From contig MHMQ01000015.1 of NCBI GenBank assembly GCA_001819395.1, positions 1-33,835 on the forward strand: DNA of 33,835 nucleotides. Reading direction: 5' to 3'. Positions within the stretch are counted from its first letter, which is position 1; every line of letters begins with the position of its first letter. The stretch comes from Candidatus Niyogibacteria bacterium RIFCSPLOWO2_01_FULL_45_48 (lineage in GTDB: Bacteria > Patescibacteriota > Minisyncoccia > HO2-45-28). A program made the position numbers and the translations under genes. Under the pieces are notes generated by a model that was given only the letters and a program-made list of their open reading frames with translations, had not been told where the DNA came from and ran no database searches. Shown here in pieces: positions 4,389-33,146 of the stretch.

Positions 4389-5090
4389 TTAATTTTTGAC
4401 AAGAGCCGTGCTCTTGTCAGCATTTGTCCAGTCTGTTAAAAATTTCCAATATTCTTCGCTGTTATTGTCAAAACACTCAATTACCGGCCCTTTTTCAATA
4501 ATCGGCGCAAATTCTTCTCTTGTTTCAAGATATTCCGGCAAACTTGACCATTTATAGTCTCTTAAAAACTTCTCTGCCCCCACCTTATCCTCAACATATC
4601 CCCGCTCTTTCCACATTGGATCAAAAATTTTAAGCGGATTTAGATGAATGTACCGGCTTGTGTGAGTATATTGTATATCATTTTCCACATGAACCGCTTT
4701 AAAGCGCCCGCTAAACAAAGGTCCGGAACGTTTATACTTAGTATTAAAATATAGCGCGTGGCTGGTTTCAAGGCGATGCATAAAGATGCTTATATTACTC
4801 TCTCCTAATTCTTTTACGAGCAGATGGAAATGGTTTGGCATTAAACACCACGCCAAAATTTCAACCAGTCGCTCTCCTTCTTTACTGTCTGTGTCAAGAG
4901 CCGTGCTCTTGCCATCCTTTCCAAGCACACGATCCATTCTAACTGGCCTACCGGAAGTATCGTTTAGATAAAACAGCAAAGCAATAAACCTGTGTCTATC
5001 AAAATCATTTTCAAATATAATCCTTTTTTCTACGCCTCTAGAAAAAATATGGTATATTTCTCCTTCCACAAACTCTATGCCACGAATCAT
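4389..5090 (-). CDS. REP-associated tyrosine transposase (RAYT, TnpA_REP; IS200/IS605 HuH Y1 transposase fold), 233 aa
   Basis: HuH motif LMPNHFHLLV. Catalytic Tyr in the RAYT-type context SRYIHLNPL. Flanked by inverted REP-like hairpins. Contains an internal REP-derived insertion (GKDGKSTALDTDS). The last 9 aa (DKSTALVKN) are encoded by a REP copy. Confidence 0.8.
   Translation of the reverse strand: MIRGIEFVEGEIYHIFSRGVEKRIIFENDFDRHRFIALLFYLNDTSGRPVRMDRVLGKDGKSTALDTDSKEGERLVEILAWCLMPNHFHLLVKELGESNISIFMHRLETSHALYFNTKYKRSGPLFSGRFKAVHVENDIQYTHTSRYIHLNPLKIFDPMWKERGYVEDKVGAEKFLRDYKWSSLPEYLETREEFAPIIEKGPVIECFDNNSEEYWKFLTDWTNADKSTALVKN
4397..4419. repeat. REP-like palindrome TGACAAGAGC-CGT-GCTCTTGTCA (copy 1, overlaps 3' end of RAYT CDS)
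   Basis: Perfect 10-bp arms and 3-nt loop read directly from the sequence. Confidence 0.85.
4892..4914. repeat. REP-like palindrome, copy 2 (TGTCAAGAGC-CGT-GCTCTTGCCA), internal to RAYT CDS
   Basis: Core CAAGAGCCGTGCTCTTG is identical to copy 1. It lies in-frame within the gene and encodes KSTAL. Confidence 0.8.
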
Positions 5091-5213: not shown

Positions 5214-5900
5214 TCAAAGAGAATCGAAAAGGGTTTGAAGGTCGCCGGTGGTGTCGGCGCCAGAGGAAATACCCTGATCCAAAATTTCTTCGGCCTTGGC
5301 CGTATTTTGCAAAATATCGCGATAAAAATTGGCTGTTTGGAAGTAGGTATAGCCGTTTTTCGGTTCTGCCCCTATCGCCCGAAGAAAGCTTTCTTCCGCT
5401 TTTTTGTGATCCTTAATGTAAAAAGCATAAAGATCAGCCAGATTCAAAAAAGACGTTGCGTTATCGGGCCGTAAAACTCCGGCGAAATCCCACGCCTCAA
5501 TAGCCCCCTCGTAGTCGCCTATTTGTTTTCTTAAAATACCGAGCTGAAGCCAGCCCTGAAGATAGTCGGAATTTCCTTTCAGCGTTGACGAGATCTCCTG
5601 TATTTGCAAAACAAGTTCTTGACGAGTCTTTTCCGGTATGTTCAAACCGGCGCTAATTTTAATCGGCCTTGACAAATCAGGAATTTTTAACTCTATTTTC
5701 TCCACAACCATGCCCGAAACGTCCCCTTCTGCCTCAATACTAATCCCGTTCCCTACCTCAATTTCCTTTGAAACTTCGTTTGTGTTTTTTACAGACTCCT
5801 CATCCGGCCTTAAATCCCGCCAAATTAAAAATCCAGCGGCAACCAGCGCCAAAGCCAGGAAGTAAAAAACCAGCTTTTGTTTAATTAAATTCATAACCAT
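5214..5900 (-). CDS. Membrane-anchored TPR-repeat protein
   Basis: Track ORF 5214-5912 begins at a TTG. ATG at 5898-5900 (MVMNLIKQK) is the more likely start. N-terminal TM helix. TPR-like helical repeats (LGILRKQIGDYEGAIEAWDFA, LADLYAFYIKDHKKAEESFLRAI). Confidence 0.6.
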   Translation of the reverse strand: MVMNLIKQKLVFYFLALALVAAGFLIWRDLRPDEESVKNTNEVSKEIEVGNGISIEAEGDVSGMVVEKIELKIPDLSRPIKISAGLNIPEKTRQELVLQIQEISSTLKGNSDYLQGWLQLGILRKQIGDYEGAIEAWDFAGVLRPDNATSFLNLADLYAFYIKDHKKAEESFLRAIGAEPKNGYTYFQTANFYRDILQNTAKAEEILDQGISSGADTTGDLQTLFDSL

Positions 5901-5915
5901 TATTTTAAACAAAAG

Positions 5916-5941
5916 AAAAACCCCCGTAAAGGGGGTTTTTC
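5916..5941. terminator. Intrinsic terminator hairpin AAAAACCCCC-GTAAA-GGGGGTTTTT (U/A runs on both sides, bidirectional)
   Basis: GC stem with flanking A and T runs, between the stop of the 1240-aa gene and the TPR gene start. Confidence 0.75.
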
Positions 5942-5983
5942 TTGGCCGTTAGGCCATAGCCCTAACTAATCCACAAGGATTGA

Positions 5984-8900
5984 TTAGTAAGTGCTGTTGA
6001 AGTACTCGGAGTTCATCTGTGTAGCCGGAAGACCGATTACACCATAGCCGTTTGTCCAGTCAAAGTCATCAATTGAAGCCGCGGTTGATGTTGAGCGGGG
6101 CGACCAGATGAAGTCGTCGTTCGTCAACTCCGCGTCAGTAGTTGTTGCCTTGAACATGTTGCCGGCTGTGGCTGGTTCGTCGTTGTTCAGGAAGGTGACC
6201 GGGTATGCCGCGTCACCGAGAAGAGCGACACTGAAGGTATCCTGCACGCTAGCGGTGCTTTCAACGTTGGCCACGGTGGCCTTGAAGGCAAAGTACCTGG
6301 TAGCGCCGTCGGCAACAACATAGGTGGTTGTTGCGTTACAGCCGTAACCAATGGCACCCTTGTCAGGATAAATCTCAACAACTGACGGAGCGTCTGTCCT
6401 ATCCGAAAGCTTGGCAGTGCTGGTGTGGAAGTTGTTTCCGCCTATGCAGTTTGCGTAGTTAATCAAGCCGTCGGAAGTAAATGCGGAATCAACAAGCGAG
6501 AAGCCGGAATCCGTGTAGGCGTAGAGTCCGAAACTAGTTGTCGTTGCCACCTCTGAAGACGAGCTGATGGAAAAGGACAACTTGTAAATCGCAAGGTCTC
6601 CTCCGCTTGCCATAACACTGAAACGATACAAGGTTTTGTTCGCTTCGGTTGTTCCGTTGGTCAAGGAGTTGCTCGGAACGCTAAGTTTGGCGAATGTCGG
6701 GTAGGACTTGTTGACACGAATACCGGATGAAGATGTGTCGCTGGCGGAAGGACCAATGTTGGTTCCTGAAGCCAATCCGACTCCGAAAGTACCGCCGGTG
6801 TAAGTGGAACTGCGCTCGTTATCACCGTCATAGTCAACCGTCAGGAAGTTTCCTGAAGCGGTAATCGGTCCCGAATCGGTAATCGCGCCTATATCGCCCT
6901 TAACAATCATAACTTTGGATCCGGATCGCGGAACAACAAAGTTTGTGATGTCGGACGAAGTCGCGGTATCACCAGTCGGGAATCCGGCCGTGCCAACCAT
7001 ATTACCCGCAGTGTCCCACAAAGTAACTTGCGAGCTAATCAGGTCAGTCGGCGCGTTTGAAGCAAAGCGGGAAAGCTGAAGGGCGACTTTTCGAAGCTCA
7101 ATATCTTCGTTAGTCGCGCTAAAGCGAACTCTTAACAACTCAACGCCTGCGGAGCCTGCGGTTACAATCTTGTACCCCGGGCTTCCGGCATCAAGCGCGA
7201 CTGAAAGAGAACCTCCCGAAGCAACGGTCATGGTCTGACCCTGGCTGTCGGTAATGGTTTCTGCAACCGTCTGACCGCTGGTTAGTCCTGTAGCACCCGT
7301 AAAGGTTGTCTGCGCGCCGTCAAGTCCCCATGTGTGGGTTTCGCCAGATCCGGCGGAAGCCGAAACATCGCACTTGAACTGCAGGGTCTTTGCCGTTCCT
7401 TTTGGAACAGTGAGTCCCGAGCCGTCAAGGACGAAGTTGGTGCCGGACGCGAATGAACCCGGATTGACGACATTTGAAGCATTAACAATCGTTGTGCCGT
7501 CGTAGATCTTGCAGTTGGTAAGATCGGTGGCTGAAGATCCTCCTCCGCCGTTATTTTCAATCGGCAAGCTGGTTACGCGAATGTCTTCTCCCGAAGCTGT
7601 CGCGTCAAGAACAATGCTTGCCAAGTGGAATTGCGCCGCTCCCGCGATAACGGTCTGCGCCAACGGGAAAGATGAAACCGAGAAAGCCAAAGCGCCTGCT
7701 TTTATGGTCATCAAGCTCATCGTAATCGGTGAAGTCGGGCTTGGAGTAATCGTGGTGTTTGTGATCTGTCCTCTGACGGTTCCCCATCCGGAAGGCGTGG
7801 TGGAAGCCTGGAAGGTGTCGTCGTTATCCAAGTCTGTTCCAATTTTACCTTTCAAAATATAAGAGTGGACGCCGACCGGGAAAGTGATGGTGTCAGAGAA
7901 TTTAATCTCACCGGTTGCGATTCCTGCGGCACCCGAGGCATTGCCTTCAGCGGCAACACCATCAACTGGACCCGCGATAACCGCGCCGTTTTCGTCATAA
8001 AGCGAAACACTGGTGATGTCGTCAGCATCTTCACTCGATCCTTCGTTTTCAAGATGAACGTTGAAGTGCATCGCTGCGACCGAAATCGGTTCGCCCTTGA
8101 CATCAACTGTGAAAGCGCCCAATGGCTGGTTCGCAAGGTTTATAGCAACATTTTGAGCAGGGGCCAAAACATTGTTAACAGAAACTGTCATTGTGCCTTG
8201 CGAGATGGTTACTTGTGCCGCGTCGTAGTACGGGTCATCCGCGTTGTTGAAGTCCGCGCCGTCAGTTGCGGCGGCTGCAGCATCAAACGGCGGATTAAGG
8301 CCGTAGCCGTAAAGCGCGCCCTGGAAGGCCACATCCGTGGTCTTCTGAATGTCAAAGTCAACCGTTCTTAACGATCCTCCGATGATATCACCCTTAATGG
8401 TGATTTCTTTGGAGAATCCTTTGGCCATCAAGACGCCTTTTCCGCTGTTTTCAACAAACACCGCAGTGTAGTATTTGCCGTCAGCGCTCACTGTAGGAAC
8501 ATATTCGCTTCCGTTGGCGTAAACCTTGACATTTGTCAAGTCATCCTTGGAAGCAGAACCTGACTGGTACCACCTGACGTATTTAATGTATACGTCTTCG
8601 GCGGAACCGGACGTGAATTTAACAGACGAGAAAGTGTAGGTTTTTGTTCCGACTTCTTTTGTCTGTGATGAACCCGGGTCAAGCGCTCCTCGCGCGGGAC
8701 CGGGGATGGTGCCGATGGTCAATGTTTCGTTGATTGTGTGGCCAGCGCCGACAACCGGGAATGAGCCGTTAACCGCGGCATTCGCGGCGACCGATGCTAC
8801 CGAAAGATAGGCAATCTGTCCGCCATATCCTCCGCCCGATGTTTGGGCGTTTCCGCCGACAACCACTGTTTTGGTCTGTCCGGCCTTAACCACAAAGTCC

Positions 8901-17938: not shown

Positions 17939-18535
17939 TTAAACCAACTCAAACAAATTTATAACTCCGGAGGCGTAAATAAAGTTAAAAATAAAATTTC
18001 CGGCCAAAATAACCGGCCAAATCCGCCCGAATCTGTAATTCAAAAATCCTAGGGGTACTACCAAAATTTCATTCGGCAAAGGAACAACGGCCGAAAAAAG
18101 AAAAAGCAGAGTCATGGGCGCCCACCAATGGCGCTCTCCGGCGCGCTCAAGCGCGATTATCATTTTTCTTTTATCGTCTATGACCTCGCGGCCAAGGCGC
18201 CCAATAACATATGTAAAGGAATCCGCGAGCGTTACACCTATGGTAATTAAAATTATCGTTGACCAGAAGTTCAGGCCCGATTCCAGAAAAAGAGGCAAAA
18301 AGGCAATCGCAGGCACGGGAACGGCAAGATTGAAGCCGGAAATAACCGCGACCGCAAAAATGCCATAATATCCGTAGTCATATACCAGCTCGGCAACCAT
18401 TTCGTTTTCGCGCGAAACTTGAGCGAAATAAAAAGCAGTCGCCAAAATCGCAACCAAAACCGCAAGCTTCAAAATAATTTTAAGGGATTTTCTGGCCATT
18501 TGGTTAATTGTAGCGTCTTTTAAAAAACTTGACAA
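17939..18535 (-). CDS. DedA/VTT-domain family membrane protein
   Basis: YDYGYYGIFAVAVISGFNLAVPVP resembles the DedA core. 198 aa, multi-TM. Confidence 0.6.
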   Translation of the reverse strand: MSSFLKDATINQMARKSLKIILKLAVLVAILATAFYFAQVSRENEMVAELVYDYGYYGIFAVAVISGFNLAVPVPAIAFLPLFLESGLNFWSTIILITIGVTLADSFTYVIGRLGREVIDDKRKMIIALERAGERHWWAPMTLLFLFSAVVPLPNEILVVPLGFLNYRFGRIWPVILAGNFIFNFIYASGVINLFELV

Positions 18536-19148: not shown

Positions 19149-19166
19149 GCCGAAAAGCCAAAATTG

Positions 19167-19197
19167 TCCCCGCGCGTCCGCCGGGGATTTTTTATTT
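19167..19197 (+). terminator. Intrinsic terminator (TCCCCGCGCG-tc-CGCCGGGGA + TTTTTTATTT)
   Basis: GC-rich hairpin followed by a T-run directly after the CDS 18621-19148 stop. Confidence 0.75.
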
Positions 19198-19241
19198 GCT
19201 AGCGACTTTCCGGCCATTTACCAAAGCACTTTTTTGGGTAC

Positions 19242-19270
19242 TTGACAACACCGTCTTTGTGATATATAAT
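19242..19270 (+). promoter_or_regulatory. Perfect consensus sigma70 promoter TTGACA (19242-19247), 17-bp spacer, TATAAT (19265-19270). Predicted TSS near 19277.
   Basis: Both hexamers and the spacing match consensus exactly. Confidence 0.7.
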
Positions 19271-19276
19271 GGAAAA

Positions 19277-19650
19277 ACGCTTCGGAGTCGTTCTTTACAC
19301 CCATTCGTATAACTCATAAGGGGGAGCTATATGCACCCGCCGTAGATAGGGCAACATTGCCGGTTTTGTCCGCGGGCGCTACATAGCCGGCAATCTCTCC
19401 AGGCGCCCATTTTTGCCGGGGCCCAAGGCCCAACTCGCCACGGCAGATGCGCAAACCCCCGTCCACGCATGGCGCGGTTGCGGTCTGCCACAGCTTCAAG
19501 GAGGCTGTCCATGCATCCGCCCTAGCTCCCGTCATTTTTCTTGGGAACACGAGGAGTACAGGAAAACCACCGAACACCCGACCGGCTCCATGCCGGCCAA
19601 CACCAGCCTCTGGCTGGCCTAGCCCCCTCTCGCGCGGAGGGGGCTTTTTA
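19277..19650 (+). ncRNA. Candidate structured non-coding RNA of unknown family (~370 nt, GC-rich), bracketed by a consensus promoter and an intrinsic terminator (AGCCCCCTC-tcgcgcg-GAGGGGGCT-TTTTT at 19621-19649)
   Basis: GC is about two-thirds in the core, against roughly 45 percent in flanking DNA. Only short low-complexity ORFs without RBS. Several local helices: 19356-19363/19387-19394, 19419-19431, 19582-19596, 19603-19617. No RNase P, tmRNA, SRP or 6S landmark motifs were found by eye. Confidence 0.5.
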
Positions 19651-19651
19651 A

Positions 19652-19679
19652 TTGAAAAAATCGAATTTTAATCTATAAT
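19652..19679 (+). promoter_or_regulatory. Promoter for tRNA-Gln: TTGAAA (19652-19657), 16 bp, TATAAT (19674-19679)
   Basis: The -10 hexamer ends 9 nt upstream of tRNA nucleotide 1. Confidence 0.55.
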
Positions 19680-19688
19680 TTCAAATAT

Positions 19689-19759
19689 TGCGGGGTCATC
19701 TAGCGGTAGGATGCGACTCTCTGAAAGTCGTCACCTTGGTTCGAATCCAAGCCCCGCAG
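19689..19759 (+). tRNA. tRNA-Gln (anticodon CUG), 71 nt, no encoded CCA
   Basis: Manual cloverleaf. Acceptor UGCGGGG/CCCCGCA with U1:A72 and G73 discriminator (Gln identity). D-arm AUC/GAU. Anticodon stem CGACU/AGUCG with loop CUCUGAA. T-arm CUUGG-UUCGAAU-CCAAG. Confidence 0.85.
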
Positions 19760-19763
19760 CAGC

Positions 19764-19799
19764 GAATGTTTCCCAAATTTTAATTTGGTTGAAACATTC
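19764..19799 (+). terminator. Hairpin after tRNA-Gln (GAATGTTTC-CCAAATT-tt-AATTTGG-tt-GAAACATTC). Probable terminator of the tRNA transcript.
   Basis: Long imperfect inverted repeat starting 5 nt after the tRNA 3' end. Confidence 0.45.
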
Positions 19800-19869
19800 A
19801 GCTTCCCGAGGCGTTAGCCGAGGGACAACATAACGCACCAGCGCGAGGGAATACCTAAATTTTTTATTC

Positions 19870-20112
19870 ATGCCCCATTTTATTTACATCCTGGAATGCG
19901 CCGATAAATCTCTTTATATCGGCTGTACAAATAATTTAGAAAAACGTTTAAAAGAACACGGCGAATCAAAGCGGGGGGCGCACTACACCAAAATCCGCCG
20001 CCCGATAATTTTAAAATATTCGGAAGAACATAAAACATTGGCCGGGGCTCGAAAACGCGAATCCCAACTCAAAAGTTGGACTCGCAAAAAGAAACTAAAT
20101 TTAATAAATTAA
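19870..20112 (+). CDS. Small GIY-YIG nuclease-domain protein (YhbQ/UPF0213-like), 80 aa
   Basis: FIYILECADKSLYIGCTNNLEKRLKEH matches the GIY-YIG motif, with the conserved Arg and Glu downstream. Confidence 0.75.
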   Translation: MPHFIYILECADKSLYIGCTNNLEKRLKEHGESKRGAHYTKIRRPIILKYSEEHKTLAGARKRESQLKSWTRKKKLNLIN

Positions 20113-24337: not shown

Positions 24338-25825
24338 TTATTTCAGCACTCCCCAAATATTCGGGTCCTGGCCTCCGTCAAATTTAAATATGGCAACGCC
24401 GCGCACTCCGAGTTTTTTCGCAAGAGCGACTTTGTCGGCAACGGCCCTAGAATCGCTCCACGAAAGATAATTGAACGGCTGGCTGACACTTGCCTGCGAA
24501 TTTTCATTTTCTGCCACGGAGGACGAAGCGATAGTCTGCTGGGTTTGGGTGGATTCATCGCTTGAAGGAGCGGTTTCCTCCAGAAGCTTCGGGTCGTAAG
24601 TGAATCCGATTTCCCCAGCTTCGTTACGGGCCGGCGTGATGCCGAGTTTCTCCGCAATTTCTATGGCGTATGTCGGGTTGAAAGGCCATAACACTTTGTA
24701 TTCGTGCTTGCCGTTTGATACGGGTGTTACCTTGTATTCGTAGCCATATGTGGGAATGCCGATTATCAATTTGTTTTTTGAGATGTTTTGGGAGGCAAGC
24801 GTCGCTAATTCTTCAACCCACTCAATATCGGCAGTCGGCGCGTATGGCGCGGGACGTATGCCGTTTAAGCGCGTGTCTATCGTGCCTTGGTCGTAGGCCA
24901 TTATCTCCACCCTGTCGCAATATTTATTCATCTCCACGTAATCGTTCGCGTAGTCTCTGGCGTCGGGAGGAATGACGGCGCCCGGGCTGTATCGGCTTTC
25001 AAGAGGCATGCGGGCCTCAATCGTGCAATACACCCATTTATTGCCCATGCGCTGATAAAGGCCTTTTAGAAAAGTTGAGAAATAATTTATTGTCTCGTGG
25101 CGCTTGGCTTCAAAGTCAATGTCTATGCCGTCAAAATTATTTTTCTTTACTAAGTTCGCGATCTCGTCTTCAAGAGCTATTCGCGTTTTGGTATTGCTCA
25201 ATATCTTGTGAATGTTGGCGCCGTTGCCCCACATTACAGTCGGTATCACTCTTACTTTATTTTGTCTGGCCATTGCGATAAAACTCTTCCACGGTTCCTC
25301 GGTGAGTCGCGCGGTGTCTGCGAGCGTGCCGTCGCTTTTTACGCTGTAGCCGAAAGGCATGACGCCTGTAAGCTGTGATAAATGCGGGAGGACGTCTTGG
25401 GTTCCGGTAGCGGAGCGCCAGTAGGGTATCCAGCCTGAAATTTCAAAGGCCCCCGTGGCCGGCCCGGTAAGCGGACTGCCGTTTGCCGAGAAAGCCTGCC
25501 TGCTTGCGGGAATGGCCGTAGCCATCGCTGATTGTGTCCGCGGGCCATAAACGCCGTAGCCCGAAGCGCTTGAGCCCGCACAAATTATTTCTTTATTGCA
25601 CTGGAATTTTTTGATGGCATTTTCAGTCAGCGCGCCGAAGTATCCTGTAGCGTATCTGTCTGCCAGATATCCGGTTTTAATTAGGGATTTTTGCAGATCG
25701 GTGACATCTGCGCCCGAAAGTCCGAAATAAAGCGAGCGCGTAGCGGCAAAAGCGCCCAAGGGCACGGCGGAGAACAGTATAAAAAATAAGAATAAGAATA
25801 AAACGGCAAAACCGGCGTATTTCAT
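24338..25825 (-). CDS. Secreted glycoside hydrolase family 18 (chitinase-like / peptidoglycan hydrolase) with N-terminal PG_binding_1 domain
   Basis: Signal peptide. PG-binding motif ADVTDLQKSLIKTGYL...GYFGALTENAIKKFQ. GH18 catalytic motif FDGIDIDFE (DxxDxDxE). Confidence 0.8.
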   Translation of the reverse strand: MKYAGFAVLFLFLFFILFSAVPLGAFAATRSLYFGLSGADVTDLQKSLIKTGYLADRYATGYFGALTENAIKKFQCNKEIICAGSSASGYGVYGPRTQSAMATAIPASRQAFSANGSPLTGPATGAFEISGWIPYWRSATGTQDVLPHLSQLTGVMPFGYSVKSDGTLADTARLTEEPWKSFIAMARQNKVRVIPTVMWGNGANIHKILSNTKTRIALEDEIANLVKKNNFDGIDIDFEAKRHETINYFSTFLKGLYQRMGNKWVYCTIEARMPLESRYSPGAVIPPDARDYANDYVEMNKYCDRVEIMAYDQGTIDTRLNGIRPAPYAPTADIEWVEELATLASQNISKNKLIIGIPTYGYEYKVTPVSNGKHEYKVLWPFNPTYAIEIAEKLGITPARNEAGEIGFTYDPKLLEETAPSSDESTQTQQTIASSSVAENENSQASVSQPFNYLSWSDSRAVADKVALAKKLGVRGVAIFKFDGGQDPNIWGVLK

Positions 25826-30085: not shown

Positions 30086-30961
30086 TTAAATTTTTAGTTC
30101 GGCTTCTATAAATTCGTCCAGTTCCCCGTTAAGCACGGCCTCCACATTTGAGGTTTCAGCTTCGGTGCGGTGGTCTTTTACCATTTTATACGGGTGCAAA
30201 ACGTAAGATCGGATCTGGTGCCCCCATTCAGCCGTGCCTTTGCTTTTGCTTGTTATTTTTAAGGACTGGATTTCTTTTTTTTCCTCTTCTTCTTTTTTGC
30301 GGTAAAGTTTTGAGCGCAAAAGCTCAAGCGCTCTTTCGCGGTTTTGCGCTTGCGATCTTTCTGAATCTATATGGGCCTGAATTCCGGTCGGTTTGTGGAT
30401 TATGCGCACCGCCGTTTCGCGCTTATTCACATTCTGCCCCCCGGGACCCGAAGAACGCGCGAACTGCACGTCTATTTCGTCCGATTTTATCTCTATATCT
30501 TCTTTATGCACTAATTTCGGCATCACTTCAACCAGGGCAAATGAGGTATGGCGGAGTTTGCGTGCAGAAAAAGGAGAAATTCTCACCAAACGATGAACTC
30601 CGGACTCGCCTCTTAAACGGCCATAAGCCGATTTTCCGACAACCTCAAACGTGACATTTTTAGTTCCACTAGTTTCGTTTTTGTGATGATGTAACAAAAC
30701 GACCTGCCAACGGCTTTTTTCGGCAAATCTGCGGTACATTTCAAGAAGCATTGAAGCCCAATCCTCGGCGTCATCCCCTCCGGCTCCGGAATAAATTGAG
30801 ATAACAGCGTCGCCCTTGTCGTATTTGCCGCCGGTCTTGGATTGCTCTTTAAGAGCGCTTAGTTTCTTTATCGCCTCTTGCGCCCTGTCTTTGTCGTTCC
30901 AGAAATTAGGGTCTTGCATCTCACTCTCAAGACTCTTAATCTCTTCGGAAATGTCGGCCAT
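30086..30961 (-). CDS. prfB: Peptide chain release factor 2 (shortened N-terminal domain, no programmed frameshift)
   Basis: SPF tripeptide (RISPFSARK), GGQ motif (SGPGGQNVNK), conserved C-terminal WGHQIRSYVLHPY. Only ~20 nt separate the start codon from the upstream tRNA terminator, so no ORF0 or frameshift site exists. Confidence 0.9.
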   Translation of the reverse strand: MADISEEIKSLESEMQDPNFWNDKDRAQEAIKKLSALKEQSKTGGKYDKGDAVISIYSGAGGDDAEDWASMLLEMYRRFAEKSRWQVVLLHHHKNETSGTKNVTFEVVGKSAYGRLRGESGVHRLVRISPFSARKLRHTSFALVEVMPKLVHKEDIEIKSDEIDVQFARSSGPGGQNVNKRETAVRIIHKPTGIQAHIDSERSQAQNRERALELLRSKLYRKKEEEEKKEIQSLKITSKSKGTAEWGHQIRSYVLHPYKMVKDHRTEAETSNVEAVLNGELDEFIEAELKI

Positions 30962-30997: not shown

Positions 30998-31072
30998 TGG
31001 AGCCGAAGGTGGGATTTGAACCCACGACCTACTCTTTACGAAAGAGTTGCTCTACCGCTGAGCTACTTCGGC
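30998..31072 (-). tRNA. tRNA-Thr (anticodon CGU), 75 nt with encoded CCA
   Basis: Manual cloverleaf on minus strand. Acceptor GCCGAAG/CUUCGGC. D-arm GCUC-AGCGGUA-GAGC. Anticodon arm ACUCU-UUCGUAA-AGAGU. T-arm GUGGG-UUCAAAU-CCCAC. Discriminator U, then CCA. Confidence 0.85.
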
Positions 31073-31117: not shown

Positions 31118-32095
31118 TCAAAGTTGCTCCAATTTCACCAAATAGTCGTCCGCCGGTTCGGAGCTTAAAATACCCTCCTTTACCATGTCGCCGATTACAA
31201 ACCTAATATCATCAACATCTTTGTCGTCCCACGAATTCATCAGAAGTTCCGGTATGTTTTGAACGGCCAAAGCAAGGGCCGCGTCAGATTTTAACCCAAG
31301 CTCTTCTTTATATTTCGCGATTGCGTCCGGATTTTTTTTGAGATAATTGTTTGTTTCAATAATCGCCGCGACTAAAGCGCGTGCGGCTTTAGGATTTGCG
31401 CCAATCCAATCTTGATAAGCGGTAAGGCCTATAAAAGAAAGGGGTCTTGAGACGCTTTTTGTCCACAAGGGGCTTAGCCCTCCCAAACTTCTGTATTCTA
31501 CCGAAACCAAAAAGTTTGCGACATCCGGCCAGCTGAAAAGGGAGACATTTACTTCACCCCTAGTCAAAAGGCCGGCTGTTTCCGCAAGGTTTCCAAAACG
31601 GATAATCGTTTCCTTTTCAATTGAAACACCATTTTTTCTTGCGACCAAATCCAAACTGGCGTATGCCGCGCTGACTTTCGGCGGAACGGCGAGTTTTGCT
31701 CCTGGCAGGTCTCCAACGGTCATAAAACGCGAATCGGTCCTGGCCACCAAAACGTTCGGCGAGTAAAAAAGCGGGCCAAAAATTCTTAATTTGGATCCTT
31801 TCAGATTGTCCTGGGCGATTGAAAATAGGCTAGACGCGCCGACATCCACCTCGCGGTCTCTCGCCTGCCGCTCCACCTCACCCGGAGAAGAATATTTTAA
31901 ATTCAGTTCCAGATTGTGTTTTTTATCTATTCCCATGTCAACCATCGCGGTATAAATCAGCGTGTGCGGAGAATTGCCGACGGCGCCGACGGTTATTTTA
32001 TAGGGCTCGGCCGGCTTGGAAAAATAGTAAACCCACGAAACGACGGCCAAAACAGCGACCAGCGCCAATATTTTTAACAAAGATTTAAAATCCAT
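31118..32095 (-). CDS. ABC-type transporter substrate-binding protein, NMT1/SsuA/TauA-like (nitrate/sulfonate/bicarbonate family), membrane-anchored
   Basis: N-terminal TM/signal anchor. Periplasmic-binding-protein-like length (325 aa) and composition. Family call by general resemblance only. Confidence 0.55.
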   Translation of the reverse strand: MDFKSLLKILALVAVLAVVSWVYYFSKPAEPYKITVGAVGNSPHTLIYTAMVDMGIDKKHNLELNLKYSSPGEVERQARDREVDVGASSLFSIAQDNLKGSKLRIFGPLFYSPNVLVARTDSRFMTVGDLPGAKLAVPPKVSAAYASLDLVARKNGVSIEKETIIRFGNLAETAGLLTRGEVNVSLFSWPDVANFLVSVEYRSLGGLSPLWTKSVSRPLSFIGLTAYQDWIGANPKAARALVAAIIETNNYLKKNPDAIAKYKEELGLKSDAALALAVQNIPELLMNSWDDKDVDDIRFVIGDMVKEGILSSEPADDYLVKLEQL

Positions 32096-32211: not shown

Positions 32212-32748
32212 TTACTTTTCAACCAACTGGCCGTCCTGCCATCTATACGGCAAAAAATATATTTTTATGTCCGATTTTGCAAGTCTGCCGGAAAGCCACG
32301 CGCCAAATTCAACCCCCTCTTTTTGCAGAGCCTCGTAGATCAAGTCTTGGCGCGCTTGCGGAAGAAGCGAGAATCTTTTCAGGTCTTTGAGGGTCCAGCC
32401 ATAAAGTTTGGCGGAAGCCTCGCTTAAATTGGCGCCGTCTTTTTGAAGAGCCTCGTCTACTCTTTTTTGGGCGTCGTTCTCGCTAAAACCGCGCAAACGA
32501 AACTCCTCCAGCACGATTTCGTCGGCAACCAAAGACATTATCATTCCTCTGCCTGCAGGTTTTTCATCGACAAGAACATCGGCCGCGCCGTTATAACGGT
32601 TAAATCCGGCGGTGAGGCCGTAATAATTTTTTGCCCAAACCAAACTTCCGTTTACGCTTATTACCGGATACAAACCGAAACTCGAAACGGAAATAAAAAT
32701 GACGGCAGTAGCGGAAAATAATAATAGAGTGTAAAATCTCAAACTCAT
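32212..32748 (-). CDS. Hypothetical membrane-anchored protein (178 aa)
   Basis: Track ORF. N-terminal TM helix. No family recognised. Overlaps the upstream ftsB-like gene by 4 nt. Confidence 0.5.
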   Translation of the reverse strand: MSLRFYTLLLFSATAVIFISVSSFGLYPVISVNGSLVWAKNYYGLTAGFNRYNGAADVLVDEKPAGRGMIMSLVADEIVLEEFRLRGFSENDAQKRVDEALQKDGANLSEASAKLYGWTLKDLKRFSLLPQARQDLIYEALQKEGVEFGAWLSGRLAKSDIKIYFLPYRWQDGQLVEK

Positions 32749-33146
32749 CGCCCAAAACCAAACAGACCGCCGAAAAGACCGGCCACCCCGCTGAAGAACG
32801 CCGAAAGATTGTCCCCGTCTACAGGCCGCTCATTTTCCTGCGGACGATCGACTATTATCATCAGCTCTTCACCGGGCTTGACCAAACCGAATTTCCGTCT
32901 CAACTCCCTTTCTAGACCATAGGCACTCGAAAGATAATCCAGGCGTTTTTCGAGATCCGTTTTTTTTACCAACAGATCTTCGTGTTTGCTTCTTACGTCA
33001 AGATACGTCGCGCGAGTGAGAGAGGCATTAAAATGGGTATTGATAGCCGATTTCCCCAAAAATACAACGGCCAAAAAAAGAACAAATATGGCCGGCCATG
33101 AATAAATAATTTTTCGAACCGGATCTTGATTTTGAAATTTCCGCAT
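32745..33146 (-). CDS. Septum formation initiator family protein (FtsB/DivIC-like)
   Basis: N-terminal TM, a coiled coil (LLVKKTDLEKRLDYLSS), and the characteristic ELRRKFGLVKPGEELMII segment. Confidence 0.55.
   Translation of the reverse strand: MRKFQNQDPVRKIIYSWPAIFVLFLAVVFLGKSAINTHFNASLTRATYLDVRSKHEDLLVKKTDLEKRLDYLSSAYGLERELRRKFGLVKPGEELMIIVDRPQENERPVDGDNLSAFFSGVAGLFGGLFGFGR

Follow-up and report, generated by a model that had tools for sequence, protein, structure and literature searches.

Introduction

Proline-codon leaders (mgtL and mgtP), Pro-Pro motifs that depend on elongation factor P (EF-P) and pausing at a proline codon followed by a stop codon serve to sense translation capacity. 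In the dual-function small RNAs (sRNAs) SgrS/SgrT, RNAIII/hld and SR1/SR1P, open reading frames (ORFs) encode functional peptides of 26-43 residues. Natural regulatory minigenes exist as well, known cases being the lambda bar regions and the two-codon mg2 in the axe-txe leader, and the toxicity of minigenes comes about through peptidyl-tRNA drop-off (PMC8708949). Ribosome-bound Shine-Dalgarno (SD) sequences and mini-ORFs can also act as 5' stabilisers, examples being the STAB-SD of cryIIIA, the LEE4 mini-ORF, hbs and the ermC stall site (cited through PMC3997798 and PMC5737220). The stretch of DNA analysed here, 33,835 nucleotides (nt) long and referred to as the window, comes from a groundwater Candidatus Niyogibacteria genome (contig MHMQ01000015.1). 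At positions 19242-19650 it contains an RNA gene with two four-codon ORFs, each of them preceded by an SD tract.

Almost no regulatory RNAs have been characterised in bacteria of the candidate phyla radiation (CPR), and this RNA, with its promoter, its terminator, a covarying structure and seven homologues, is a clean candidate. Its design is unusual in that two SD-led four-codon frames flank a structured core in a genome that is mostly SD-less. The reading we favour, to which we assign a probability of roughly 0.45, is that of a lineage-restricted sRNA whose function would be exerted through ribosome binding at the two minigenes.

Results

A conserved, structured RNA with its own promoter and terminator

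The RNA gene is delimited by two signals:

19242..19270, + strand: sigma-70-type promoter TTGACA-17-TATAAT (TTGACA 19242-19247, TATAAT 19265-19270; 12/12 consensus positions)
19621..19650, + strand: intrinsic terminator, a 10-bp GC-rich stem (19621-19645) followed by a T-run

A scan of the whole 33.8-kb window returned the promoter as the sole site with at most one mismatch. Both signals had been pointed out in an earlier, first-pass annotation of this DNA, and both are confirmed. The ends of the RNA are predictions from these consensus signals; with a start predicted near 19277, the unit extends for about 375 nt through the terminator. The GC fraction is 0.607 across 19277-19650 against 0.45 in the flanks, the latter in agreement with the annotation, the former below the two-thirds given there. 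To judge by its consensus promoter, the RNA may be expressed at a high level.

Homologues were sought using a gene for a 175-amino-acid (aa) protein and a VTT-domain gene as anchors, and then with an nhmmer profile. Six further distinct homologues were obtained (L009, identical to L023; L063; L067, identical to L030; L069; L070; L071). All come from Niyogibacteria-like contigs, and the L063 copy is carried by a complete genome (CP066691.1; 837 kb). The 175-aa protein, encoded upstream of the RNA, is identical to one of Candidatus Niyogibacteria bacterium RIFCSPLOWO2_01_FULL. In eight contigs with this protein (L001-L008) the RNA is 100% identical, so that these are uninformative on variation. 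All seven homologues, window included, have the 12/12 TTGACA-17-TATAAT promoter, the GC-rich terminator and, immediately downstream, a separately promoted tRNA-Gln(CTG) (7/7 in each case). Predicted transcripts range from 227 to 382 nt. Outside the retained promoter, terminator, minigenes and a hairpin called H1, the sequences are only 50-66% identical, and insertions and deletions abound in the 5' leader, central core and 3' tail. As found so far, the RNA is restricted to one clade of Candidatus Niyogibacteria (CPR/Parcubacteria); it is absent from L012-L014, which share synteny of the 175-aa gene (42-47% identity). It is absent also from a nearer relative, L066 (690-860), where the 175-aa gene is likewise missing and the tRNA-Gln promoter directly abuts the VTT gene. 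With a VTT protein 87% identical, L066 is closer than most of the RNA-bearing homologues. Since the same locus occurs without it, the RNA shows presence/absence polymorphism and is accessory.

Folding was examined with RNAalifold on an unfitted MAFFT alignment of the seven sequences, the control being the same alignment with 3' partners slid by 1-3 columns. The consensus consists of H1, a small hairpin masking the second SD, the terminator and a long-range helix, P1. In this structure 89.7% of the cells are paired, against 43-55% with the partners slid, and 9 pairs are changed on both sides, against 2-6; compensatory change in relatives, which the annotation had proposed as a check, is thus present. 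H1 (helix 4 of the alignment count) has 4 pairs changed on both sides among homologues, and a manual structural alignment places UUGCCGG/CCGGCAA, CUGCCA/UGGCAG and CGCCAA/UUGGCG stems at the equivalent position. Compensatory changes are found in the terminator stem, too. The helices listed in the annotation are all present in the window sequence. Those formed by ATTGCCGG/CCGGCAAT, CCGGC/GCCGG and CCAGCC/GGCTGG, as well as the terminator, are kept in relatives with compensatory changes; the C(UUCG)G loop is not conserved. The single-sequence fold is modestly better than those of shuffled sequences (z = -2.3). Taken together, these data identify a real, conserved and structured RNA with its own promoter and terminator. 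Its parts, apart from the minigenes and P1, are:

19277..19317, + strand: variable 5' leader, in which the CU-rich GUUCUUU (19290-19296) can pair with the first SD; missing in L069 and L063
19356..19394, + strand: hairpin H1, ATTGCCGG...CCGGCAAT plus an inner stem; loop with GCGCYRC
19401..19407, + strand: near-invariant AGGCGCC (AGGCGCT in L009) just 3' of H1, with a palindromic GGCGCC
19408..19490, + strand: GC-rich variable core, 49-93 nt across homologues
19526..19620, + strand: variable 3' tail with CCGGC-UCCAU-GCCGG (19582-19596) and CCAGCC-UCU-GGCUGG (19603-19617)

The AGGCGCC tract may pair with the H1 loop or constitute a binding or dimerisation site. A long hairpin in the core, GGCAGAUGCGCAA...UUGCGGUCUGCC, is shared by the window with L067 and L069 only.

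Two SD-led ORFs of four codons

The first-pass annotation had stated that the unit contains no credible ORF and no ribosome-binding site (RBS). This does not hold, as two four-codon ORFs with strong SD tracts are present at 19331-19345 and 19511-19525:

19318..19345, + strand: minigene 1, SD-like AAGGGGGAG (19318-19326; SD1) and ORF1, ATG CAC CCG CCG TAG (M-H-P-P-stop; 19331-19345)
19491..19525, + strand: minigene 2, AAGGAGG (19498-19504; SD2) and ORF2, ATG CAT CCG CCC TAG (M-H-P-P-stop; 19511-19525)

The pattern ATG-CAY-CCN-CCN-TAG, which was picked post hoc, occurs twice in the transcript against 0.01 expected by chance per window, and in the window an SD-like tract lies 5-6 nt upstream of each copy. 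SD2 is masked by the local hairpin CAGCUUC/GGAGGCUG. In the homologues both starts follow a GGAGG-type tract at a distance of ~5-10 nt, the spacers varying in sequence and length. SD1 begins ~6-55 nt from the predicted transcript start according to the homologue (6-9 nt in L069 and 14-17 nt in L063, depending on the G-run chosen); the 16S rRNA of the organism lies outside the window.

All 14 instances (two ORFs in each of seven homologues) are exactly four codons long, end in TAG or TAA and conform to the layout of a minigene, in which an SD and a start precede ~2-6 sense codons closed by a stop, all outside a protein gene. The ORF1 peptide is MHPP in three homologues, MHWP in two, MHEP in one and MHDT in one, with start, His codon, length and stop constant. 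ORF2 encodes MHPP in 7/7; its variation is confined to positions 1 (ATG to GTG, in L069), 6, 9, 12 and 15 (TAG/TAA) and leaves M-H-P-P-stop unchanged. The gap fraction is 0 in both SD+ORF blocks, as compared to 0.33-0.50 in leader, core and tail, and among segments of comparable length these two blocks and the terminator are the only gap-free ones, the two blocks being the best conserved. From these patterns, the two units would on balance seem to be real ribosome-binding and translation units. Literature searches on MHPP or Met-His-Pro-Pro and on CPR small RNAs returned nothing relevant.

One could imagine that the peptide itself is the product, formyl-Met-His-Pro-Pro being a signal or a metabolite precursor by analogy with the gene for the seven-residue microcin C precursor. 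In its favour, MHPP is invariant in ORF2, the promoter and SD tracts are strong, and an ABC-2 transporter pair is encoded downstream in the window. We nevertheless hold this to be very improbable. The ORF1 peptide is not conserved, neither a modifying enzyme nor a conserved exporter is found alongside (neighbours differ in L009 and L063), and the conserved structured core would be left without a role. We know of no ribosomal natural-product precursor as short as four residues.

Pairing between the two minigene blocks

The consensus fold joins the two minigenes through P1:

19322..19335, + strand: 5' strand of P1, GGGAGCTA (19322-19329) and TGCA of start codon 1 (19332-19335)
19512..19530, + strand: 3' strand of P1, TGCA of start codon 2 (19512-19515) and TAGCTCCC (19523-19530)

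In L009, L063, L069, L070 and L071, the partner of SD1 (GGAGGA/G) is the UCCUCC of the Pro-Pro codons. The window has SD1 paired just past ORF2 instead, GGGAGCUA (19322-19329) with UAGCUCCC (19523-19530), and in L067, which was hand-aligned, the equivalent SD1 pairing is weaker. The UGCA segments of the two starts pair with each other in every homologue. In its closed form P1 can, as modelled, hide both RBSs. P1 is nearly invariant, and therefore covariation neither supports nor refutes it.

These helices offer an explanation of the ORFs that dispenses with ribosomes. The RNA might be a purely structural, trans-acting sRNA in which GGAGG, CCNCC and the palindromic AUGCAU are helix strands and the ORFs untranslated by-products; H1, AGGCGCC or the C-rich tracts would then be the parts acting on a protein or other RNAs. 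We consider this a serious but unlikely alternative. In its favour, RNAalifold finds the SD1:ORF2 and UGCA:UGCA pairings unguided, and a number of further observations weigh against translation. Helices of GGAGG:CCNCC and UGCA:UGCA would on their own hold C fixed at the first two codon positions and leave the third freer, which makes the "synonymous-only" pattern of ORF2 weaker evidence of coding. A single P1 position has changed from A-U to G-C, in L063, and the change is compensatory; in L069 a C-A mismatch between ORF2 and the CAC of ORF1 is mended by the GUG start of ORF2. In predicted ensembles both SD tracts are for the most part base-paired (unpaired probability 0.00-0.36), and constraint folding puts the cost of a ribosome footprint at 14-27 kcal/mol for either unit. 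Across the seven homologues, such folding revealed no consistent link of one site to the other or to the terminator. Furthermore, an SD (GGAG, GAGG or AGGA at -20 to -4) precedes only 5 of 32 gene starts. SD-led initiation is thus not to be assumed in a genome that seldom uses it. Limits on the favoured reading as a whole are the dispensability of the RNA at its locus in L066 and a sample of seven sequences from closely related organisms.

Other features would be left unexplained if the ORFs were by-products of pairing: the in-frame TAG or TAA at codon 5 in 14/14 units; the constant four codons of ORF1 despite changes in the middle ones; the second SD, which lies ~5-10 nt before start 2 and outside P1; and the fact that the window and L067 have kept Pro-Pro (CCG CCC), although there these codons have lost their pairing with SD1. 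The near-invariance of P1 leaves its covariation neutral on this point as well. The rarity of SD sequences also makes two near-consensus tracts in one short RNA conspicuous. Many mRNAs of this genome look leaderless, since 12 of 26 gene starts have a TATAAT-like box ending 4-9 nt before the ATG. Among the gene starts of the window are, for example:

23218 and 23741: gene starts
24338-25825, - strand: gene with its start
31118-32095, - strand: gene with its start
32745-33146, - strand: gene with its start

A ribosome-driven switch between the two sites was considered and rejected. A footprint forced on ORF1 or ORF2 freed neither the other RBS nor the terminator, the one exception being the terminator of L009 and L063, which the footprint directly overlaps.

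ORF2, the terminator and the downstream tRNA gene

An SD-led ORF ending in Pro-Pro-stop, located upstream of an intrinsic terminator in 7/7 homologues and always followed by a tRNA gene, is also suggestive of a leader-peptide attenuator. If ORF2 is translated, the terminator, and with it read-through into tRNA-Gln and the genes downstream, would be governed by ribosomes that pause on M-H-P-P-stop; the pause might be caused by a shortage of Pro-tRNA or His-tRNA, by low EF-P or release-factor activity, or by a ribosome-targeting drug. The geometry is suitable in L063 and L009: there only 2-7 nt separate the ORF2 stop from the terminator stem, and a terminating ribosome would raise the probability that the stem's 5' arm is unpaired from 0.02 to 0.54 (L063) and to 0.21 (L009). 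A similar arrangement is found upstream of tRNA-His in L050, a locus described below. In the other 5/7 homologues, however, stop and terminator are 48-95 nt apart, and occupancy is without effect in constraint folding, so that no classical attenuator is conserved. A conserved antiterminator was likewise not found, genes past the tRNA differ between genomes, and the near-consensus promoter of the tRNA gene is kept in every case, being intact even in L066, where the RNA is missing. Attenuation is thus improbable as the general function of the RNA.

Comparison with described RNA families and protein genes

At gathering score, tRNAs alone pass the Rfam 15 models in the window. With the threshold relaxed to E<=10 over 19150-19800, the best non-tRNA matches reach 12-21 bits against thresholds of 40-70, and the homologues L009, L063, L067, L069, L070 and L071 match no family even at E<=5. 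ARAGORN detects no transfer-messenger RNA (tmRNA) in the window or the homologous loci. By these searches the RNA is not RNase P RNA, tmRNA, signal recognition particle (SRP) RNA or 6S RNA, landmarks of which the first-pass annotation had looked for by eye without success, and no T-box or riboswitch family of Rfam 15 reaches its gathering threshold in the window. The RNA is outside every described RNA family.

A very divergent housekeeping RNA (RNase P, tmRNA, SRP or 6S), or else a non-functional GC-rich remnant, might conceivably be expected in a GC-rich island beside a tRNA gene and homing-endonuclease genes, the more so as the island is absent from one close relative. The chances of either appear slim. 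The failure of Rfam models at permissive E-values in homologues and the lack of a tmRNA speak against the former, and a 1.7-fold variation in length and dispensability at the locus fit it poorly; the range of 227-382 nt, the confinement to one clade and the gap at the same locus in L066 are at odds with a universal housekeeping role. A remnant is disfavoured because promoter, terminator, covarying H1 and both minigenes are retained at 50-66% identity.

Longer reading frames across the unit were discarded as genes. For the 87-aa minus-strand ORF, a search of 5.8 billion proteins returned no homologue other than the ORF itself, and the long Ala/Gly/Pro-rich plus-strand ORFs could not fit into the 227-nt version of L063; the annotation had rightly treated the Ala/Gly/Pro ORFs as artefacts. 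A CsrA-type GGA sponge was rejected as well, the ~six GGA counted by eye in 374 nt being near the chance expectation.

Occurrence of the ORF2 unit in other genomes

Species-representative genomes were scanned with the ORF2-type pattern AAGGAGG-N(4-10)-ATGCAYCCNCCNTAR. The scan returned 17 loci against an estimated 15-30 chance matches, and about half of the 17 may be chance matches or plain hairpins. Eight of them are of CPR type; CPR genomes account, by our own estimate, for a few percent of the bases in this collection. In metagenomes 31 loci were found, none of the window type and many of them plain SD/anti-SD hairpins; since the window's own contig was not returned, the metagenome collection is incomplete for this lineage. 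A viral scan gave 3 loci. That many matches to the ORF2 pattern are plain AAGGAGG...CCTCCTT hairpins (the Bacteroides-like L033, L037, L044, L054 and L060) accords with the untranslated, structural alternative. The CPR loci with the pattern match no Rfam family at the gathering threshold.

Several matches are laid out much like the window unit, and the favoured reading gains some support from the presence of SD-MHPP-stop behind strong consensus promoters in CPR-type contigs (L024, L031, L050 and L022). A Yonathbacteria locus (L024) has a promoter, SD-MHPP-stop, an anti-SD tract and a terminator within ~110 nt and is matched by nhmmer to the 3' half of the RNA (E=4e-5). The unit is also carried by an Uhrbacteria locus (L020), follows a TTGACA-16-TATAAT promoter in L022 and, in L036 and L053, comes with a terminator after a promoter and an eight-codon ORF. 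The 5' leaders of L034 (minus strand) and L045 are homologous; both retain the unit, which ends in TAA in one of them and in TAG in the other, and they differ in SD spacing. These leaders, ~330 nt upstream of the pattern match, lie after an ImmA/IrrE-like (HELGH) gene and before a small zinc-ribbon gene, and contain a long CCGAAGGAGG...CCUCCUUCGG hairpin.

L031 and L050 have 12/12 promoters 440-570 nt upstream of the unit, followed in L050 by a separately promoted tRNA-His. Both are GC-rich islands (57-62%) in AT-rich CPR-type contigs (L050 3858-4687; L031 1955-2768, minus strand), each with a possible small basic or zinc-ribbon ORF without Pfam match, SD-MHPP-stop and, after a structured tail of ~200 nt, a terminator. 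On the opposite strand of L031, a tRNA-Gln is located ~630 nt beyond the island. The two do not form a second homologous family, as their alignment outside the pattern is no better than random.

Whether SD-AUG-CAY-CCN-CCN-stop is a recurrent, portable ribosome-sensing module of CPR/Patescibacteria seems doubtful on these data. Such a module may sit in strongly promoted short transcripts, often beside tRNA genes, in mostly SD-less genomes.

Genomic neighbourhood

The annotation had placed an independently promoted tRNA-Gln downstream of the unit with a GIY-YIG gene next to it, and this arrangement is correct:

19652-19679 and 19689-19760, + strand: TTGAAA-16-TATAAT promoter and tRNA-Gln(CTG); conserved genomic context of the RNA
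19870-20112: gene for an 80-aa GIY-YIG protein (Pfam, E=1e-17)
17939-18535, - strand: VTT-domain gene, upstream and divergent

The ABC-2 transporter genes mentioned above also belong to the downstream region. The neighbouring 175-aa and 170-aa proteins matched no Pfam domain. Genes beyond the tRNA vary among genomes. In L009 (5040-6069) a LAGLIDADG-type ORF (5390-5977) lies upstream of an intact tRNA-Gln (5996-6069) and is itself preceded by a copy of the tRNA-Gln promoter and approximately the first 24 nt of a tRNA; this looks like insertion of an endonuclease gene with duplication of the start of the tRNA gene.

Short direct repeats near the -10 boxes of the RNA and tRNA promoters (19257-19277 and 19649-19679; TTGTGATATATAAT/TTTTAATCTATAAT and TAATGGAAAAA/TAATTGAAAAA) may reflect promoter duplication or chance. 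The spacer between tRNA-Gln and the GIY-YIG gene (19761-19872) has an unusually stable fold (z = -4.9), with a long AU-rich hairpin followed by a CCC-GA-GGC-GUUA-GCC-GA-GGG hairpin with tandem GA/GA, and may be a 5' untranslated region element of the GIY-YIG gene. At the equivalent spot L066 has longer GC-rich hairpins of a similar kind that, by eye, appear to be repeated. The CCSAGGCG motif, common to the RNA and this spacer, is not enriched.

Elsewhere in the window, an IS200-like Y1 transposase gene occupies 4389-5090 on the minus strand (Pfam PF01797, E=1.7e-9), with a 152-aa uncharacterised ORF downstream of it. A release-factor gene with PCRF and RF-1 domains (30086-30961, minus strand) starts 36 nt from tRNA-Thr (30998-31072). 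Its product has 291 aa only and matches the PCRF profile from position 95; it is either naturally short or has its N-terminus encoded in another frame.

Discussion

A small RNA that would act through ribosome engagement could work as follows. RBS1 is made ~150-190 nt before its long-range partner and is for that reason available co-transcriptionally; ribosomes would load there as the RNA emerges during transcription. RBS2 would be loaded whenever the RNA is open, and the closed P1 form would later conceal both sites. Ribosomes would translate four codons and then depart. By analogy with STAB-SD, mini-ORF 5' stabilisers and natural minigenes, their occupancy might set the stability and the conformation of the structured core. 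A Pro-Pro-stop context slows peptide-bond formation and termination, and at the end of ORF2 it could make occupancy responsive to translation capacity. The core, with H1 and AGGCGCC, would carry a trans-acting function.

If the frames are translated, the RNA would be a free-standing sRNA whose activity is read out by ribosomes, and it would provide a handle on how SD-led and leaderless initiation coexist in reduced organisms. Were they untranslated, it would still be a new structured RNA family for Rfam, of narrow distribution.

The bar and mg2 minigenes resemble the units described here in having an SD, a start, very few sense codons and a stop within a non-coding stretch of transcript; their effect stems from ribosome loading or peptidyl-tRNA release and not from the peptide. 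They differ in that here two mutually complementary minigenes occur on a free-standing, terminated sRNA and bracket a covarying core, with no downstream cistron coupled to them. A possible parallel to the 5' stabilisers is SD1, if it lies as near the 5' end as the predicted start suggests; they consist of a strong SD that may or may not come with a mini-ORF, and ribosomes bound there shield the RNA from decay of the RNase J or RNase E type. Those elements protect protein-coding mRNAs; here only the RNA itself lies downstream, and a second unit is placed near the 3' end.

ORF2 shares with the Pro-Pro leaders its termination in Pro-Pro-stop, but the chain has four residues, no promoterless regulated gene follows and the attenuator geometry is not conserved. 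Like the dual-function sRNAs, the present RNA is an independent small transcript combining structure with an ORF; unlike theirs, its ORFs have four codons and the ORF1 peptide is not conserved. With tmRNA it has in common a structured RNA containing a short internal frame, a stop codon and flanking structure. It differs by the lack of a tRNA-like domain and by frames with an SD and AUG or GUG, which are absent from tmRNA. Minigene-bearing sRNAs and leaders thus have precedents as a kind, the present architecture has none, and the RNA is a new family of narrow distribution.

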